Below, one piece after another: positions 9,010 to 42,066 of a DNA stretch of 64,000 nucleotides. The DNA comes from Deltaproteobacteria bacterium (GTDB taxonomy: Bacteria; SAR324; NAC60-12). The notes under the pieces are model-generated. The model saw only the letters and a program-made list of their open reading frames with translations, had not been told where the DNA came from and made no database searches. The stretch lies in assembly GCA_038150265.1 (NCBI GenBank), contig JAYOTF010000001.1, positions 98,092 through 162,091 of the forward strand, written 5' to 3'. Made by a program: the position numbers and the translations under genes. How positions within the stretch are numbered: position 1 is the first letter of the stretch; each line of letters starts with the position of its first letter.

Positions 9010-9739
9010 CTTGAAGCCCGCCCCCTTGATTGAGCTGGAGGCCGTCACCAAGCGCTTTGGGTACCGGACCATCCTCCACCAACTCAGCACCTCCATTGCC
9101 CCCGGAGAGTCCGTGTTGCTGCTGGGCAACAACGGGGCCGGGAAGTCCACCCTTCTGCGCCTGATCAGCTCCCTCTCTCGTCCCACCTCCGGACAGATCT
9201 GCTTCCGCGGCAAGCCCTACGCCGACTGCCACATGGACCTGCTGGAGAACCTGGGGGTCATCTCGCACGAAAGCCGGCTCTATCCGGACCTCAGCGCCGA
9301 GGAAAACCTGCGCCTGTTCGGAACCCTGCACCGGGCCACCAACCTGAATGAACGCATTCCGGAGGTCCTGGAAGAGGTCCGCCTGGCTCATGTCCGTCTG
9401 GCTCCCGTCCGGACCTTCAGTAGTGGCATGACCAAGCGCCTGATGATCGCCCGGGTGCTGCTGTATCGCCCTCCCCTGCTGCTGATGGATGAGCCCTACA
9501 CTGGGCTGGACCAAAGCTCGGTGCGGTGGCTGCAGGACCTGCTGGTGTCCCACCAAAAAGCAGGAGGCAGCCTGATTCTGGTCACCCACCAGCTTGACCT
9601 CGGCCTCGAGGTTGCGACCCGGGTGCTGCTCCTCCACAAGCACCGGTTGTCCCAAGACCTTCCGGTTGCTGAGGCCACTCTGGAAACCTGCTCCTCCTGG
9701 CTGAACGATGGAGTTCACTACTCACCTTCAGAATCCTGA
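8981..9739 (+). CDS. ABC transporter ATP-binding protein
   Basis: Walker A GNNGAGKST, signature FSSGMTKRL, Walker B LLLMDEP. The true start may be the TTG at 9011, one nt after the upstream stop. Confidence 0.8.
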   Translation: MKTSLSRPTDLKPAPLIELEAVTKRFGYRTILHQLSTSIAPGESVLLLGNNGAGKSTLLRLISSLSRPTSGQICFRGKPYADCHMDLLENLGVISHESRLYPDLSAEENLRLFGTLHRATNLNERIPEVLEEVRLAHVRLAPVRTFSSGMTKRLMIARVLLYRPPLLLMDEPYTGLDQSSVRWLQDLLVSHQKAGGSLILVTHQLDLGLEVATRVLLLHKHRLSQDLPVAEATLETCSSWLNDGVHYSPSES

Positions 9740-31618: not shown

Positions 31619-31627
31619 AGCCGAAGC

Positions 31628-33577
31628 CTACTCTTCTGGTTTGGCCTTGGAGAAATCAAACTCCGGAGAATCCAACGCTGCTGCCGAGACCTGGCGGATC
31701 TTGTCGATGGGCTTGTCTGCCACCCGGTTCCCTCGGGCCTGAGCGCCCTTGACCAGCAGGCTGTCAAACAGCACCAGCTCCCGGGTCTTGCGCAGGCGGG
31801 GCGCCGGAACAAACAGCGCCTCCAGCATCAGCCCGGCTCCCTGGCTGAAGTGCATGATCTTTGCGCCCCGAGCCTTGGGAAAGAGGCGGTATTCCTTGTC
31901 CAGAATGAACTTCTCCACCCGGAACCGCTTCGCGTAGCAGATCTGACTCTCTCCTTCCGAGTAGATGAGGTTGTACACCAGCTTGGGATCATGCAGGTCC
32001 AGCCGGTTCACGTCCTTTCCCACAAACAGCTTCTCTGGCACCTTGATCACCTGGTACCGCCCATCTTTCCGGAAGAGCACAATGCGGTCGAATTCCGAGC
32101 AGGTCAGCGTGTGGTTGCTCTTCACGGTGGTCCCAATGAAGCCGGACTGCTTGTCCCACCCCAGCTGCAGCGTCTCAGCGACATCCTTCATGCGGATCTC
32201 GTCAAAAGACGCAATTTCCGTCCGCCTTGGGTACAGCTCCCCGTAACTCTTGATGAGCCCCTCGAGGTAGGCGATGGCGTAAGCCGTCAGTTCCTTGAGG
32301 TGCTTCTTGACCTCCCGGATGCGTTTCTGCAGCTTCTTCAGGTTGGCTTCTGCCTCTTTTTGGTCAAAGCGGGAGATGCGCTTGATGGGAATGGCCAGCA
32401 GGGCTTCCAGGTCGTCCTTGGCAATGGGCAACTCCAGGTCCGGAAGGAGGGGCTGCATGCGCACCTCAACCTCCTTCAGAACCTCCTCATACGAGTCGCA
32501 CTGCTCCAGCACCTGGTAGACGCGTTCCCTCAGGAAGTACAGCTCCAGCCGCCCCCGGTGCCACTTGTGCCGCAGCTGCTCCAGCTCCAGCTCCAGCTCC
32601 AGGCGCAGGAGGTGCAGCAGGCGGTCTGTCGCATGCGCCACCACCTCGCGGGTCGTCATCTGAACCGGCTGGTTGCCGCGAATCACCAAGAGGTTGACCG
32701 AAATGGAGACCTCACACTGGGTAAAGGCAAACAGGGGCTTGAGCAGGTCCTTCGCCTGCACTCCACGCATCGCCTTCAGCTCCACAGCCACTTCTTCGGT
32801 GGTGAAGTCGTTGATGGACGCCACCTTGAGCTTCCCCTTGTTGGCTGCATCCTGAACCGACTGAATCAGGCTCTCTGTGGTCACACCAAAGGGGACGTCC
32901 TTGATGAGCAGCGTTTTGTCGTCCTGCACTTCCACCCGAGCTCGGATCCGGACCTTGCCGTTTCCATTCTGATACTGCTCCGGATCCATGATCCCGCCTG
33001 TAAGGAAGTCCGGAAGCAGGTCCCGCTGCTCTCCCTGAAGCCATGCGATCTGCGCCTGAAGCACCTCATTGAAGTTGTGCGGCAGGATCCGGGTCGACAT
33101 GCCAACGGCGATTCCTTCGGCTCCCAGCAGCAGCGTCGCTGGAATCTTGCAGGGCAGGCGGACGGGTTCCTTGTTTCGACCGTCATAGCTTTCGACAAAC
33201 TCCGTCAGCTGCGGATTGAAGAGAACCTCGCGAGCCAGCGGGGTCAGGCGAGCCTCAATGTACCGGACCGCCGAGGCGGGATCCCCCGTGAAGAGGTTCC
33301 CGAAGTTCCCCTGCTTCTCAATGAAGTACTCCTTGTTTGCAATGACCACGAGCGCCGAGCCGATGGAGGCGTCTCCATGCGGGTGCAGCTTCATTGCCTC
33401 TCCGACGATGTTGGCCACCTTGCTGAACTTCCCGTCGTCCATCGTCCACATCGTGTGAAGGATGCGCCGCTGGACGGGCTTCAGGCCATCATCAACATCG
33501 GGAATCGCCCGTTCCTTGATGACGTACGAGGCGTATTCCAGAAAATTCTGGTCCATCAAGGGTTTGAGATTCTGCAT
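31628..33577 (-). CDS. parC: Type IIA DNA topoisomerase subunit A, ParC-like with short C-terminal domain
   Basis: QNFLEYASYVIKERAIPDVDDGLKPVQRRILHTMW is the canonical GyrA/ParC N-terminus. Only 649 aa. No GyrA-box was seen. Confidence 0.75.
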   Translation of the reverse strand: MQNLKPLMDQNFLEYASYVIKERAIPDVDDGLKPVQRRILHTMWTMDDGKFSKVANIVGEAMKLHPHGDASIGSALVVIANKEYFIEKQGNFGNLFTGDPASAVRYIEARLTPLAREVLFNPQLTEFVESYDGRNKEPVRLPCKIPATLLLGAEGIAVGMSTRILPHNFNEVLQAQIAWLQGEQRDLLPDFLTGGIMDPEQYQNGNGKVRIRARVEVQDDKTLLIKDVPFGVTTESLIQSVQDAANKGKLKVASINDFTTEEVAVELKAMRGVQAKDLLKPLFAFTQCEVSISVNLLVIRGNQPVQMTTREVVAHATDRLLHLLRLELELELEQLRHKWHRGRLELYFLRERVYQVLEQCDSYEEVLKEVEVRMQPLLPDLELPIAKDDLEALLAIPIKRISRFDQKEAEANLKKLQKRIREVKKHLKELTAYAIAYLEGLIKSYGELYPRRTEIASFDEIRMKDVAETLQLGWDKQSGFIGTTVKSNHTLTCSEFDRIVLFRKDGRYQVIKVPEKLFVGKDVNRLDLHDPKLVYNLIYSEGESQICYAKRFRVEKFILDKEYRLFPKARGAKIMHFSQGAGLMLEALFVPAPRLRKTRELVLFDSLLVKGAQARGNRVADKPIDKIRQVSAAALDSPEFDFSKAKPEE

Positions 33578-33609
33578 CCGTCAACCTTCCTGAAGCCGTC
33601 AGTGGGAGT

Positions 33610-35190
33610 TCAAAGAGAAATTTTTCGGGCGGAGGTAATTCCGGGACGATTGCGCAACTCGTCCACCACCGCTTCAGAGATGCCGTCATCCACGCGGATC
33701 AGCGCCATGGCTTCGCCACCTTTGGTGTTTCGCGCCAGCTCAAACTGGTCGATGTTCACCCCCTGTGTCCCCAGCAGGGTTCCGATGACGCCCACCATTC
33801 CGGGCTGATCCTGGTTGGTGGTGAGCAGAATGGTGCCCGTTGGTTCAATTTCACAAACGAACTCATTGACGAGCGTGATCCGGGAGTGCTGTCCACTGAA
33901 GACCACTCCTCCAATCTGAAACTTTCCTTCCGGACCCTGCAGCGTACACTTGAGGGCACTTTCGTAATCCGTGAAGCCCGGATCTGCCGTCTCCTCAACC
34001 CGCAGGCCAGCAGCCACGGCACACTGGTCCGCGTTGACGTAGCTGACGTGCTCGTGCTTGTTTTCCAGGAATCCCTTGAGGAAGCTCAAGCGGAGCAGGG
34101 ATCCTTCATGCCGAGCCAGGCTCCCCCGGAGCTTCAGCTCCAGCTGGTTGGGGGTGATGGTGGTGGCTTGTGAGGCAAAGCGTCCCAGGTTTTCTGCCAG
34201 CGCGGCATAGGTCCGGACCTGTGGATTGTCCAGCACCTGAACATTGGGCATGTTGACTGGAGAGTCCACGACCTCTCCCCGAAGCGCCCGAGGCACTTGT
34301 GTCCCGACTGACTCGGCAATCCGCATCTGGGCTTCCAGCGTCGAGGCTCCAATGTGCGGCGTCATCACCACGTTCGGAAAATCCTTGAATGCGTTTTCCT
34401 TGGGAGGCTCAATCTCCCAGGTGTCCACTCCTGCTGCTGCGACCCGTCCGGACTCAATGCCCTTCAGCAGGGCGGCTTCGTCAATCACTCCCCCACGAGC
34501 GGCGTTGAGGATGATCACGCCCTTTTTCATGCGGGCAAACTCATTGGCACCGAGCATGCCGGTGGTTTCCTTGTTTTTCGGAACGTGCAGGGTGATGACG
34601 TCGGATTCCTCGACAAGCTCATCCCACGTGACCTTCTTGGCGTTGTGCCGCTCAAAGACCTCATCGGAGATGTAGGGGTCATAAGCATGGACCGTCATGT
34701 CAAAGGCAGTGGCAAACCGGGCCACACGGTGTCCCACGTTTCCCAGTCCAATGATGCCAATGGTCTTCCCGAGCAGCTCAATGCCGGTGAAGGTGTGGCG
34801 GTCCCAGCGCAGGTTCTCCATGTGCTTGTGAGCCGGAATGACCTTCCGGATCGCATTGAGGAGCAGCCCCATCGTCAGTTCGGCGGCAGAGTTGGTGTTC
34901 TTGGCCGGCGTATTGAAGACCAGGATGCCCTTCTCAGTGGCATAATCGACATCGATGTTGCCGATGCCGACTGCTGCGCGGGCGATCACTTTCAGATTCG
35001 GTGCATGGTCAATCAACTCCCGAGTGATGGGAGTTTCTGAGCGAGACAGCACGCAGTGGTAGGGTTCCACAACGGAAAGGATCTCCTGGTACGGAAGATC
35101 CGGAGAGTACGTCACCTCCAAATCCGGTTCCTGGTTGAGGAGCGTCAGGCCCACCTCATGGATGGATCCGGTAATCAGCACTTTGTACAT
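33610..35190 (-). CDS. serA: D-3-phosphoglycerate dehydrogenase
   Basis: 2-hydroxyacid dehydrogenase core (GIIGLGNVGHRVA), ASB and C-terminal ACT domains. Length 526 aa. Confidence 0.9.
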   Translation of the reverse strand: MYKVLITGSIHEVGLTLLNQEPDLEVTYSPDLPYQEILSVVEPYHCVLSRSETPITRELIDHAPNLKVIARAAVGIGNIDVDYATEKGILVFNTPAKNTNSAAELTMGLLLNAIRKVIPAHKHMENLRWDRHTFTGIELLGKTIGIIGLGNVGHRVARFATAFDMTVHAYDPYISDEVFERHNAKKVTWDELVEESDVITLHVPKNKETTGMLGANEFARMKKGVIILNAARGGVIDEAALLKGIESGRVAAAGVDTWEIEPPKENAFKDFPNVVMTPHIGASTLEAQMRIAESVGTQVPRALRGEVVDSPVNMPNVQVLDNPQVRTYAALAENLGRFASQATTITPNQLELKLRGSLARHEGSLLRLSFLKGFLENKHEHVSYVNADQCAVAAGLRVEETADPGFTDYESALKCTLQGPEGKFQIGGVVFSGQHSRITLVNEFVCEIEPTGTILLTTNQDQPGMVGVIGTLLGTQGVNIDQFELARNTKGGEAMALIRVDDGISEAVVDELRNRPGITSARKISL

Positions 35191-35293
35191 AAGGACTTCT
35201 GGGGAAAGGGCAATACGGGAACTTTGGTTCGGTCAAACCTAGTACTTTCCCACACTTTCCGGGACGAATAAAGACGGAACCTCGCGGAGAGGC

Positions 35294-38570: not shown

Positions 38571-38882
38571 ATGATGCCTTGGACCAAGAAAGCCCTCGCT
38601 ATTTTTCTGATTAGTTGCTCGCTTTTTGCATGGACTGCATCACCAATCTGGGCCGCTCCCGGAGAAACTCCTGGAGCCATGGCCATGGTGGTCGATGTGC
38701 CCCTCCGGATGCTGAGCCTGGGCATTTCCGTTGTCACTTCAGCGGTATTTGTGGTCGCTCTACCGTTTGCTCTCACTTCCGGAAGTACTGGAAGCGCTTG
38801 GGACACCCTGGTGGTCGAGCCCTTCGAGTTCACTTTCACTCGTCCTCTGGGTCAGTTTGACGACTGGCGCACGAGGAACTGA
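38571..38882 (+). CDS. Hypothetical small secreted/membrane protein
   Basis: Signal peptide MMPWTKKALAIFLISCSLFAWTASPIWA and a second hydrophobic segment. Start abuts the xth stop (TAAATG). Confidence 0.45.
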   Translation: MMPWTKKALAIFLISCSLFAWTASPIWAAPGETPGAMAMVVDVPLRMLSLGISVVTSAVFVVALPFALTSGSTGSAWDTLVVEPFEFTFTRPLGQFDDWRTRN

Positions 38883-38904
38883 CTTTACTTCAAAAAGGTA
38901 AGCC

Positions 38905-39426
38905 ATGCGTACACTCGCAAAAGCCCTCACCGTTGTTTTTGGAAGCCTGCTGATCGCTTCCACGGCCTCCGCCGAGTTGTTCTCCGTTAGTGTTGGCATA
39001 CCCGTCAGCCACACGTTCAGCGATGATGCCGTTGAATCCGACGGCACCAGCGGTGTCTTCGCCGCAGTCAAGCTCCCGATCCTGGTGGGCCTGGGTGTGG
39101 AGAACTACAGCACCGACATCAAGGGCCAGGACACGAAGCTCAACACCACGATGTATGACGTCTTCTACCTGCTCCCGATTCCGATCATCAACTTCACCCT
39201 CGGCGTGGGCATGGGCACCACGGAGCTCGACTGTGCAACCTGTTCAGCCCAGTATGATACCGGAACCGCAACCCAGTGGTACGGAAGCCTCGGCTTTCCT
39301 TTCCTCGGAATTGCAGACCTGCACGTGAGTTACCGCTCCGTCAGCTCCAAGATCGAAGACAGCAGCGGCAACAAGACCGACGTCAGCGGCAACGTTACTG
39401 GCATTGGCGTCAGCGTCGGATTTTAA
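38905..39426 (+). CDS. Small outer-membrane beta-barrel protein (OmpW/OmpA-like class), paralog 1
   Basis: Signal peptide MRTLAKALTVVFGSLLIASTASA, alternating hydrophobic beta-strand pattern, C-terminal ...GIGVSVGF ending in Phe. Confidence 0.6.
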   Translation: MRTLAKALTVVFGSLLIASTASAELFSVSVGIPVSHTFSDDAVESDGTSGVFAAVKLPILVGLGVENYSTDIKGQDTKLNTTMYDVFYLLPIPIINFTLGVGMGTTELDCATCSAQYDTGTATQWYGSLGFPFLGIADLHVSYRSVSSKIEDSSGNKTDVSGNVTGIGVSVGF

Positions 39427-39432
39427 TCAGGT

Positions 39433-40053
39433 TTGGTCATGAAACAGCTCAAGAAACTGGTACTGATCAGCATGGGCTTGCTGATTGGTGCGGGAGTCAC
39501 GCAGGCTCAGTTCATTGGCATCAGCGTTGATGGAGCCATCGGCTACACGGCCACGGAGAGCACGGTTTCCGGAGGCAGTGTTGACCTTTCTCATCCGGTC
39601 CCCTTCGTCCCAAACTTCGGTTACAGTGCCTTGAGCTTCATTGACGAAGCCGATCTGCTTCCCAGCACCGGATCCGAATCGTTGAACACGAAGACGACCC
39701 TGGCGCTGCAGAGCTACCACCTCTTCTACCATGTTCCCTTTCCGGTCGTCTCCATGGCCCTCGGCTTTGGGTTGGGCAGCGCTACCGTCAAAAGTGAACT
39801 GGCCATGACCAACAGTGGCAGCACGATCAGCAGTGAGGCGACCCAGGTGGTTCCAATCAGTGAAGCCTTCATTCACATCGGCTTGCCCGTCTGGAGCATT
39901 CTGGAGTTTCACATCGGCTACCACGCTTATTCGCTCTCCAAAGTCGATTTGACGAAAAATGCGGACTTCAATCCAGCGGACTACAACTTTAGCGTTGAAG
40001 AGAAGAACTACACGGGGGGCATGACCACCGTGGGGTTGCAAATCGCGTTTTGA
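39433..40053 (+). CDS. Small outer-membrane beta-barrel protein, paralog 2
   Basis: Signal peptide MKQLKKLVLISMGLLIGAGVTQA, C-terminus ...TVGLQIAF. Shares the beta-barrel pattern and the short LGxG motifs (LGVG / LGFGLG) of the upstream paralog. Confidence 0.6.
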   Translation: MVMKQLKKLVLISMGLLIGAGVTQAQFIGISVDGAIGYTATESTVSGGSVDLSHPVPFVPNFGYSALSFIDEADLLPSTGSESLNTKTTLALQSYHLFYHVPFPVVSMALGFGLGSATVKSELAMTNSGSTISSEATQVVPISEAFIHIGLPVWSILEFHIGYHAYSLSKVDLTKNADFNPADYNFSVEEKNYTGGMTTVGLQIAF

Positions 40054-40704
40054 GTGTTCCCCTCCCCCTTTCCGGCAACGGTTGGATTTCACACCCAGCC
40101 GTGCCACGCCCCCAGCGACTGCTTTCCTGAAGAAATCGAATCGGTCTCACACTTCCGATCCGCAAGCCGGCGTCAGGAGTTCTTCGCAGGACGTACCTGT
40201 GCGCATCGAGCATTGGAGCAACTGGGCCTCACGCCCGTCCCTCTTCTTCATGATCCCGAAACCCGCATCCCGGCCTGGCCTCCGGAGACCAGAGGCAGCC
40301 TCACCCACTCCGGAGGCGTAGCGGCAGCAGCGGTGGCCTGGTCCCGAGACGCCTTTGGAATCGGAATCGACCTCGAGCACCTTCCCCGAAAGATCAACCC
40401 TGGCATCACCCGACACGTGTGTACGCCTCGGGAACTCGCAACGTGGCAAGGGCTTCCCGCCAGCGAGCAGGATGCTTTTCTCAAGCGTTTGTTCTCGGCA
40501 AAGGAAACCATCTACAAGAGCCTCTTTCCCCAGCTGCGGGTGCCCATTGGCTTTCAAGACGCCGACCTTGAGTTTGCCCCGAGCACCTTTTGCTTCACGC
40601 TCACCCGCTCCCTTGACCCCGGATTCCCTGCAGGATTCACGGCCACTGGTCACTGGCAGCAAACTCCGGAATTCGTCCTCACGTCGCTTCTGATTCCCCA
40701 GTAA
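40054..40704 (+). CDS. 4'-phosphopantetheinyl transferase (Sfp/EntD-type)
   Basis: RRQEFFAGRTCAHRALEQLGL, GIGIDLEHL and FSAKETIYKSLFP are the three PPTase motifs. GTG start directly after the upstream stop. Confidence 0.75.
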   Translation: MFPSPFPATVGFHTQPCHAPSDCFPEEIESVSHFRSASRRQEFFAGRTCAHRALEQLGLTPVPLLHDPETRIPAWPPETRGSLTHSGGVAAAAVAWSRDAFGIGIDLEHLPRKINPGITRHVCTPRELATWQGLPASEQDAFLKRLFSAKETIYKSLFPQLRVPIGFQDADLEFAPSTFCFTLTRSLDPGFPAGFTATGHWQQTPEFVLTSLLIPQ

Positions 40705-40950
40705 CTTCAGCTAATTAGCCTGGTTTTGAACAGGGTTTGAACCAACCTTCAACAGCTATCAACAATTTATCGACACCCTTTGGGAGAGTATTGGGTTTTT
40801 CCCGATGATTTGGTATCTTGATGGGTCTCAATTGTTGATATCAACATCCCTTCAAAAATCAGGATTCCCCAAAAATCGTTTGAGTTCAGATTGTTGAAGA
40901 GTTTTCGACAGAATCGACAGCCTCTACTGACACTAACCTAACAAGGACTA
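40705..40950. promoter_or_regulatory. Candidate chromosomal replication origin (oriC): AT-rich intergenic region with clustered DnaA-box-like motifs
   Basis: About 40% GC against ~60% flanking. It contains TTCAACAGC (40748), TATCAACAA (40757), TTATCGACA (40767), the palindrome TGTTGATATCAACA (40833-40846), TTGTTGAAG (40891, reverse box), TTTTCGACA (40902) and AATCGACAG (40912). It sits immediately upstream of dnaN-recF-gyrB. Confidence 0.5.
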
Positions 40951-42066
40951 ATGGAAATCTTAATCAAACAGGAAGTACTGAAGGGGGCTCTTCAGAACCT
41001 GATCTCGGTGATTGATAAAAGCTCCGCGAAACCGATCCTGTCGAATTTCCTCATGCAAGCGCTTCCGGAACAGGGAATGGTGGAGTTCCAGGCAACGGAT
41101 CATGAGCTGTCCTTGATTGAACGCTTCCCGGCTCAGGTGAAGTCGGGAGGAAGCATGTGTGTCAATGCCCGGAAGATGTACGACATCAGCCGGGAGTTCC
41201 AGGAAGACGAGGTCAAGATTCAGTCGACCGAGCAGCTCTGGATTCACGTCAGTTGCGGCAAGTCCCAGCTTCGTCTGCCTTCAGTAGATGTCGGGCTCTA
41301 TCCCCAGACTTCCATGTAAGACATTTCGGGCAAGGTGACGGTCACGGTGTAAGCCATCAAGCGAGCAATTGACATGACGCTGTTTGCCGCTCAGACCAAC
41401 GAGTCCCGCCGCAACCTGATGGGCGTGAACCTCTCTTCCAAGGAAGGTTCCACCCGCTGGCTGGCAACGGACGGCCATCGGCTCGCTCAGATGCTGCTGC
41501 CAGTGGAGTCGCTGACCATGGGAGACGTTGAGGATGTGATCATTCCCCGGAAGGCCCTGAACGAGGTCCGGCGCTCGGCAGACCTTTTTGGGGAGCAGGT
41601 CCAGGTTTCGTTTGATGAGCGCGTGATGCAGTTTTCAGGGGAGTCGATTGTTTACAAGGCGAGCCTCATTGTAGGGAACTTACCGAAGTGCGACCCGATA
41701 ATTGCGAAAGACAAACCTCTGGTGGCCAACGTGGACCGCGAGCGCCTGATGAACTCCCTCCGCATTGTCTCATCCATCAGCGCTGAGAAGCTCAAGCCCG
41801 TCAAGATCACACTGGGGCCAAACCGGATGCTGCTGGAGAGCGAAAAGACGGACTATGGCGAGGTGAGTGACGAACTGGAGGCCACGTATGAAGGCGAGGA
41901 CTTCCAGATTGGTTTCAACTCCCGCTACCTGCTGGATGTGCTGAGCGTGATGGAAGCCGAGAAGGTCCAGATGGAGTTCAAGAATCCAATGAGCCCCACG
42001 GTGCTGCGGGAGTCCGGAAAGAACGAGTTTCTCTCCGTGATCATGCCGTTGCGAATTGAATGGTAA
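40951..42066 (+). pseudogene. dnaN: DNA polymerase III beta sliding clamp (dnaN) interrupted by two in-frame TAA codons at 41317-41319 and 41350-41352
   Basis: Both ORF-track pieces (40951-41319 and 41374-42066) are in the same frame and align colinearly with the beta clamp (LPSVDVGLYPQ...ATDGHRLAQ). Each TAA sits where E. coli has Gln (DDWQSEV and LPQATMKRLIE). Whether this is a true pseudogene, a sequencing error or recoding is unresolved. Confidence 0.85.

Follow-up and report, generated by a model that had tools for sequence, protein, structure and literature searches.

A probable chromosomal replication origin with a lineage-specific DnaA-box variant upstream of dnaN in a SAR324-cluster bacterium

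The 246-bp intergenic spacer directly upstream of dnaN in a 64-kb stretch of DNA (the window, here meaning the whole of the sequence analysed) very probably serves as the origin of chromosome replication, oriC, in a SAR324-cluster bacterium whose dnaA is encoded elsewhere. A probability of about 0.85 is assigned to this reading. The spacer holds a dense cluster of DnaA-box-like motifs whose position and orientation are conserved across the phylum. It coincides with a switch in GC skew and runs into some of the least stable DNA of the region. SAR324 is an abundant, uncultured phylum of the deep ocean, and a literature search retrieved no description of a SAR324 replication origin. The element described here is very probably of an ordinary kind, in a phylum without a described origin.

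The host of the window was identified from its nearest DnaN relatives, all of which are SAR324-cluster or 'Deltaproteobacteria' MAGs. Eight of these (L001–L008), with DnaN identities of 58–93%, were collected in a scan of species-representative genomes with the C-terminal part of DnaN; one further match is an Elusimicrobia outgroup (L009). The spacer separates a 4'-phosphopantetheinyl transferase (PPTase) gene from dnaN, which codes for the sliding clamp and, like dnaA, is an indicator gene for oriC. Downstream of dnaN are recF, gyrB, der and then a type II secretion F-like gene. The spacer is surrounded by housekeeping genes (gyrB, recF, der, recN, a parC-like gene, serA, hisB, hisH and glnE), and its context is therefore chromosomal. 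The order exoIII-orf-omp-omp-PPTase, spacer, dnaN-recF-gyrB-der is common to six of the eight relatives; L004 and L007 carry other upstream genes. Directly 5' of the PPTase gene (38571-40053) are one ORF of 103 aa and two paralogues of 173 and 206 aa, both of the latter with signal-peptide-like N-termini. None of the three has a match in Pfam, and their order is kept in six SAR324 genomes. At 31631-35223, the true genes (ParC/GyrA-like and serA) lie on the minus strand, and the long plus-strand ORFs at 31619-33808 and 34312-35040, opposite these real genes, were rejected as spurious. Greedy longest-ORF calls are unreliable in this GC-rich window, and gene-orientation bias is therefore not counted as evidence. 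Rfam and tRNA scans of the window gave no matches, so the spacer is not explained by an RNA element. Exact-protein look-ups for extension of the window returned one 5.6-kb contig for its left edge and none for its right edge, DnaN or RecF. The features of the spacer and its flanks are listed from left to right.

40054-40704, plus strand: PPTase gene, left neighbour of the spacer.
40705-40950, no strand: candidate oriC, the whole PPTase-dnaN intergenic spacer, 246 bp.
40724-40732, plus strand: box a, TTTTGAACA, degenerate (C5 to G); the L002 orthologue is TTTTCAACA.
40735-40743, plus strand: box b, GTTTGAACC, decayed, 11 bp after box a; the L001 orthologue is GCTTCGACA.
40746-40754, plus strand: box c, CCTTCAACA; L001 has CCTTCGACA, with only position 6 toggling between A and G.
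40756-40764, plus strand: box d, CTATCAACA; L001 has GTATCGACA.
40767-40775, plus strand: box e, TTATCGACA, the only exact lineage-consensus box of the window.
40788-40817, no strand: conserved non-box block, GTATTGGGTTTTT ... ATTTGGTATC, from the eight-sequence alignment A1.
40833-40846, no strand: 14-bp palindrome TGTTGATATCAACA, made up of boxes f and g.
40833-40841, minus strand: box f, ATATCAACA, left half of the palindrome.
40838-40846, plus strand: box g, also ATATCAACA, overlapping box f by 4 bp.
40853-40877, plus strand: two CAAAAATC A-tract repeats, 17 bp apart, including AAAAATCAGGA.
40879-40889: conserved -10-like block TTTGAGTTCAG, between box groups; TATAAT in L005 and L007.
40892-40900, minus strand: box h, TCTTCAACA, in reverse orientation.
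40902-40910, plus strand: box i, TTTTCGACA, upstream member of the dnaN-proximal tandem pair, one mismatch.
40911-40919, plus strand: box j, GAATCGACA, abutting box i, two mismatches.
40920-40923, plus strand: GC cluster GCC(T), which with box j forms the 13-bp spacer from box i to the first trio.
40924-40941, plus strand: DnaA-trio-like repeats CTA CTG ACA CTA ACC TAA; the bottom strand reads 3'-GAT GAC TGT GAT-5'.
40933-40982, no strand: least stable duplex by nearest-neighbour free energy, the proposed unwinding element.
40951-42066, plus strand: dnaN, matching all three Pfam beta-clamp domains.

The first-pass annotation had put the spacer forward as a candidate oriC on account of its AT-rich composition and at least seven box-like motifs, and every motif that it quoted is present where it was placed. 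The GC content is 0.402, against 0.590 for the window, and the lowest-GC 200-bp stretch of the 64 kb falls on the spacer. Eight heptamer cores of the form WTCRACA are found here, starting at 40748, 40758, 40769, 40840, 40904 and 40913 on the plus strand and at 40833 and 40892 on the minus strand, so that the earlier count of motifs stands. The entire window holds 33 such cores, and its other 246-bp stretches hold three at most. Sequences simulated from the spacer's own composition contain 0.23 on average and never more than four (first-order Markov model, 20,000 simulations). The density is thus far above that of the rest of the window; the annotation had proposed such a comparison, genome-wide, as a check. 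When the full motif TTATCRACA is sought with at most one mismatch, the window yields 18 matches (8.6 in shuffles); five of these lie inside the spacer, including the exact one at 40767. Ten box-like 9-mers occupy the 246 bp in all, these five among them. At least three DnaA boxes lie within about 100 bp of each other, as expected of an oriC.

The canonical TTATCCACA is absent from the entire 64-kb window, and against this strict E. coli form each of the ten boxes has at least one mismatch. In the E. coli consensus, TTWTNCACA, position 6 belongs to the conserved core (PMC5043019). It had been suggested for this window that CA or CG in place of the central CC may define the DnaA box of the lineage. 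This was upheld by an unbiased tally of position 6 across nine SAR324 spacers, which took in all sites matching TTWTCNACA with at most one other mismatch (50 sites). A is present at 28 sites and G at 19, each about 19-fold over the flanks; T is present at two sites (2.2-fold) and C at one (0.7-fold, no enrichment). The canonical E. coli-type box, with C at position 6, accordingly accounts for 1/50 sites. The lineage box is TT(A/T)TC(A/G)ACA, and what is specific to SAR324 is a near-exclusive purine at position 6 together with the avoidance of C. Between the window and L001, boxes frequently differ by just an A/G change at this position. It is possible, though less likely than not, that the DnaA of SAR324 has a shifted preference, requiring a purine at position 6 and disfavouring TTATCCACA. 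Alternatively, an ordinary DnaA may merely tolerate A or G there. A box core altered throughout a class has been described before, in the Epsilonproteobacteria, where position 5 is T and the core TTCAC (PMC5043019). The altered position is 5 in that class and 6 in SAR324, and the epsilonproteobacterial box has been tested by footprinting, whereas the SAR324 box is predicted from sequence. In Thermoanaerobacter tengcongensis the DnaA boxes follow the consensus TTATCNACA (PMC1888806). Position 6 is not fixed as C in either organism; it is free (N) in T. tengcongensis, but restricted to purines in SAR324, where the C form is not enriched.

A tblastn search with an approximate E. coli DnaA domain III–IV query found no dnaA anywhere in the window, nor closer than 10 kb to dnaN in the eight relatives. 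Across the window and all loci, dnaA was seen near dnaN only in the Elusimicrobia outgroup, which indicates that the two genes are not linked in SAR324. A second box cluster may exist beside dnaA elsewhere on the chromosome. Boxes with A at position 6 (A-6) were also sought more widely. When metagenomes were scanned for TTATCRACA-NN-TTATCRACA, 120 loci were returned. In 27 of them the match adjoins dnaA, often with the A-6 pairs mixed with TTATCCACA; the A-6 box is thus a natural and widespread form of the DnaA box. None of the 120 loci belongs to SAR324, DnaN identity being just 21–26%. The DnaA proteins of the 27 loci keep the E. coli contact residues R399, D433, H434, T/S435 and mostly H439, and a comparison of contact residues with box type (A-6 or C-6) across these loci yielded no recognition code. 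The exact 20-mer TTATCAACAAGTTATCAACA occurs in more than 35 unrelated metagenome contigs with GC contents from 0.21 to 0.65, of which only some adjoin dnaA. The metagenome matches L019, L020, L048, L073 and L095 have long conserved flanks in common and resemble a single conserved gene or element.

Boxes a–e share one orientation. Their starts at 40724, 40735, 40746, 40756 and 40767 give a period of 10–11 bp, and the match to the lineage motif improves rightward, ending in the perfect TTATCGACA of box e, which is probably a high-affinity anchor. The two leftmost boxes coincide with the tandem repeat GGTTTTGAAC/GGGTTTGAAC at 40722-40742. The first-pass annotation had recorded this GTTTTGAAC repeat and considered that it could be part of an unwinding element. 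The repeat exists, but the role does not hold: its copies are a pair of degenerate boxes that extend the ~11-bp array, as is evident from their orthologues, the first copy being TTTTCAACA in L002 and the second CTTCGACAA in L001. The perfect palindrome, also reported earlier, was confirmed as TGTTGATATCAACA at 40833-40846, formed by two opposite-strand ATATCAACA boxes. It is identical in L001, reads TGTTGAAATCAACA in L002 and is not kept in more distant relatives. At 9330-9400 of the L004 locus (~170-230 bp 5' of dnaN), box pairs form a long inverted repeat, TTTTCGACAGGTTATCGACAGG ... CCTGTCGATAACCTGTCGAAAA, whose arms are ~24 bp apart, an enlarged form of the 14-bp palindrome.

Other parts of the spacer are conserved without resembling boxes. 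In the block at 40788-40817, TT at 40796-97 and TTG-TA (in TTTGGTA) at 40810-15 are invariant in alignment A1. This block may be an accessory-protein site, a DNA bending site or part of the dnaN promoter. The same three roles may be considered for the A-tract repeats at 40853-40877; a sequence like AAAAATCAGGA is also present in L005, L007 and L003. A promoter and terminator scan of the spacer, simple in its treatment of promoters, found no sigma-70 promoter and one weak terminator-like hairpin, at 40788-40817, which is not conserved in L001. Comparison by eye with the parS, LexA and IHF consensus sequences gave no match in the spacer.

The architecture is conserved among the relatives. A clear box cluster lies 5' of dnaN in seven of the eight, including L004 with its different upstream genes; L007 has weak box-like sites and trios only. 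The L004 spacer contains nine near-perfect TTATCGACA boxes, and those of L003, L005, L006 and L008 contain TTATCAACA or TTGTCAACA. Box positions are fixed relative to the dnaN start codon. A TTATCRACA box is placed 181–184 bp 5' of the ATG in the window, L001, L002, L003, L005, L006 and L008, and a box is placed 45–49 bp 5' of the ATG in these seven and in L004. The dnaN-proximal tandem pair is located ~47 and ~38 bp 5' of the ATG. These distances (~182 and ~47/38 bp) hold even at ~60% DnaN identity. The spacer as a whole is 85.8% identical to that of L001, whereas synonymous sites of the flanking genes differ at pS ~0.5, which shows that the spacer is under purifying selection.

The cumulative GC skew of the window reaches its minimum at 40778. 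The first-pass annotation had named a replicon-wide skew minimum at this locus as a check on its proposal, and the minimum does fall inside the spacer, as a local minimum of the 64 kb. Left of the spacer, over 40 kb, skew is -0.041, and right of it, over 23 kb, +0.030; none of 5000 block shuffles reached this split. When genes were scored one by one, those on both strands included, 11/12 on the left were negative and 8/11 on the right were positive. The sign of the skew thus follows the side of the spacer rather than the coding strand. A change from negative values on the left to positive ones on the right has the polarity of an origin rather than a terminus. The 20-kb curves of seven of the eight relatives, L004 included, have their minimum within ~200 bp of the dnaN start; L007 again has negative skew to the left and positive skew to the right, with the minimum ~2.2 kb 5' of dnaN. 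A position at the GC-skew switch, characteristic of oriC, is thus seen within the 64-kb window and in 7/8 related loci. The earlier candidate-oriC reading is supported by the motif enrichment and the skew minimum, both in the spacer, and by the box variant shared by nine spacers.

At its dnaN-proximal end the spacer presents, in order, tandem boxes, a GC cluster, a 13-bp spacer, 5'-CTA repeats and AT-rich DNA. The columns TT.TC.ACA at box i are nearly invariant in alignment A1, and CTA number 1 and (A)CTA number 4 of the repeats are invariant in all eight aligned sequences. The segment 40933-40982 is the least stable local 50-mer by computed stability, ranks about 30th of the 64,000 window positions and flanks the boxes, as does the AT-rich unwinding element of an oriC. 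Both the ribosome-binding site of dnaN (AAGGA, 40943-47) and the first 32 nt of the gene fall within it. In L001 and L003 no 50-mer of the whole 20-kb locus is less stable than the orthologous stretch, and in most relatives the least stable position is the same as in the window. To judge from these sequence properties, the likely unwinding region is ~40924-40982, at the opposite end of the spacer from the GTTTTGAAC repeat.

This layout was compared with the basal unwinding system (BUS; Richardson 2016/2019, Pelliciari 2021). Predicted BUS elements consist of a box, preferably a tandem pair, a spacer of up to 16 bp (most commonly 13), 3'-GAT-5' repeats and AT-rich DNA (PMC8287927). The published description of the unwinding module places a GC cluster ahead of the trios (PMC7561715). 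The rule applied here called for a box with at most two mismatches to the lineage motif, no more than 16 bp from the trios, a second box in tandem being optional. In the window, boxes i and j abut, and 13 bp separate the upstream box from the first CTA. All nine loci have the box followed by 5'-CTA repeats on the same strand, as in Bacillus subtilis. At least three consecutive trios, 3'-NAN-5' (consensus 3'-GAT-5'), are found in L003, L004, L005, L006, L007 and L008; the window, L001 and L002 fall short of this number, each having just two consecutive NTN triplets, in the window in any register. The window is therefore BUS-like in layout and is not filed as a formal BUS member. Clear trio arrays are seen in L004 (CTACTACCACTACTACTT), L005 (CTACTACTACTAATAATT) and L007 (CTACTACTAATA). 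The Clostridioides difficile trio element, 5'-CACCTACTACTATTACTACTATGA-3', is located downstream of three boxes (PMC7561715).

A course of events can be proposed from this arrangement. According to the Leonard/Grimwade model, same-orientation boxes 2 bp apart (an 11-bp period) in E. coli oriC reportedly guide DnaA oligomers toward the unwinding element, and the SAR324 array resembles that of E. coli in its same-orientation boxes and ~11-bp period. We infer that DnaA is the binding protein. (i) DnaA would bind the 9-bp boxes, TT(A/T)TC(A/G)ACA, occupying strong ones first. (ii) The five-box rightward array (40724-40775), the inverted pair (40833-40846) and the reverse box (40892-40900) would nucleate a DnaA oligomer, which would grow along the phased box arrays, where the best match is TTATCGACA at 40767. 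(iii) The boxes at 40902-40919 would point the oligomer across the GCC cluster onto the bottom-strand trios (40924-40941). (iv) The oligomer would open the duplex at ~40933-40982, across the dnaN ribosome-binding site and start codon. The helicase would be loaded at the opened stretch, and replication would be bidirectional. The order of these events and the exact site of unwinding are those suggested by the layout.

In the dnaN gene of the window, the reading frame is broken by two TAA codons, at 41317-41319 and 41350-41352 (codons 123 and 134), where relatives have Glu or Asn. In codons 238–258 (41662-41724) there are nine lineage-unique replacements, most of them within RLIEGKFPNCDPIIPKDN, a motif that the eight relatives share without change. 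Compared with L001, the gene as a whole has a pN/pS of 0.065. No internal stops were found in the other real genes of the shared 20 kb, and the window has no second dnaN. Reassignment of TAA as the cause was rejected, since 14/64 greedy stop-to-stop ORF calls end in TAA. Sequence error or very recent inactivation is the likely explanation, and the two nonsense codons cast some doubt on the sequence quality or the state of this genome.

Several points count against the spacer as oriC, among them that no dnaA is nearby, that the trios of the window are imperfect, that the proposed unwinding site extends over a coding start, that the skew minimum is that of 64 kb and that the adjoining dnaN has nonsense codons. 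The first of these would also suit a different reading, in which the spacer is a DnaA-regulated promoter or operator of dnaN, a remnant of an ancestral dnaA-dnaN region, and the true origin is elsewhere, for example beside dnaA. In E. coli, the dnaA-dnaN region and oriC are indeed separate. The spacer must hold the dnaN promoter, and the -10-like block at 40879-40889 is conserved; the simple sigma-70 scan, however, found no promoter. Ten helically phased box-like sites, trios and the least stable DNA also exceed the needs of an operator. The sign of the skew changes at the spacer in the window and in 7/8 relatives regardless of gene strand, and a regulated promoter fails to explain a switch at this exact site in 8/9 genomes. 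This weakens what is the main rival, and it is considered unlikely.

The near absence of C at position 6, part of the conserved core in E. coli, raises the question of whether the sites serve a protein other than DnaA, such as a lineage-specific initiator or transcription factor, their resemblance to DnaA boxes being partly coincidence. The central palindrome could suit a dimeric regulator. Such a protein is nevertheless very improbable: eight of the nine box positions agree with the DnaA consensus, A-6 tandem boxes adjoin dnaA in many bacteria with canonical DnaA contact residues, T. tengcongensis DnaA uses boxes of the form TTATCNACA (PMC1888806), and the geometry of box, spacer and trios is specific to DnaA. 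Almost no credence can be given to the spacer as an AT-rich stretch arisen by chance, or as an assembly artefact, without specific function. The nonsense codons in the adjoining dnaN could call local sequence quality into question, but the motif count is far beyond that of the simulations, and the same architecture in eight independently assembled genomes refutes this explanation. The spacer is thus best read as the SAR324 oriC.

Among known origins, the closest arrangement is that of cyanobacteria (Synechococcus elongatus PCC 7942, Anabaena PCC 7120 and Cyanothece ATCC 51142), in which a DnaA-box cluster with the lineage-specific box TTTTCCACA is located directly 5' of dnaN and dnaA is elsewhere (PMC4674748). 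The cyanobacterial box varies at position 3 and keeps C-6, whereas SAR324 has A or G at position 6 and avoids C. Many cyanobacteria are without clear GC skew (PMC10225481), in contrast to the sharp switch of SAR324. The SAR324 spacer also resembles the BUS of B. subtilis incC and C. difficile oriC2, which have tandem boxes, a GC cluster, CTA-type trios and AT-rich DNA, all 5' of dnaN. The BUS of Firmicutes, however, is situated between dnaA and dnaN as part of a bipartite origin; SAR324 has no dnaA at this site, and in the window the trios are degenerate (CTA CTG ACA CTA) and the AT-rich stretch enters the dnaN coding sequence. E. coli oriC is not beside dnaN and uses TTATCCACA and Dam GATC sites. 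The spacer of the window differs in that it adjoins dnaN and contains no GATC site. E. coli oriC scores weakly for BUS (PMC8287927).

An oriC with a box consensus provides a zero point for coordinates when SAR324 genomes are closed and oriented, and its position enables growth-rate estimates from metagenomic coverage (peak-to-trough ratio). TT(A/T)TC(A/G)ACA can serve as the lineage motif for origin-prediction tools, whose default is TTATCCACA. SAR324 also adds a case in which the core of the box, not its flanking positions, has changed relative to the textbook site. The underlying recognition code of DnaA can be tested directly with a single protein and a small set of oligonucleotides (TTATCGACA, TTATCAACA, TTATCCACA and TTATCTACA). 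Should the preference of SAR324 DnaA prove to be shifted, the core of the DnaA box would have been respecified across a whole phylum, in a way comparable to the T-5 box of the Epsilonproteobacteria.
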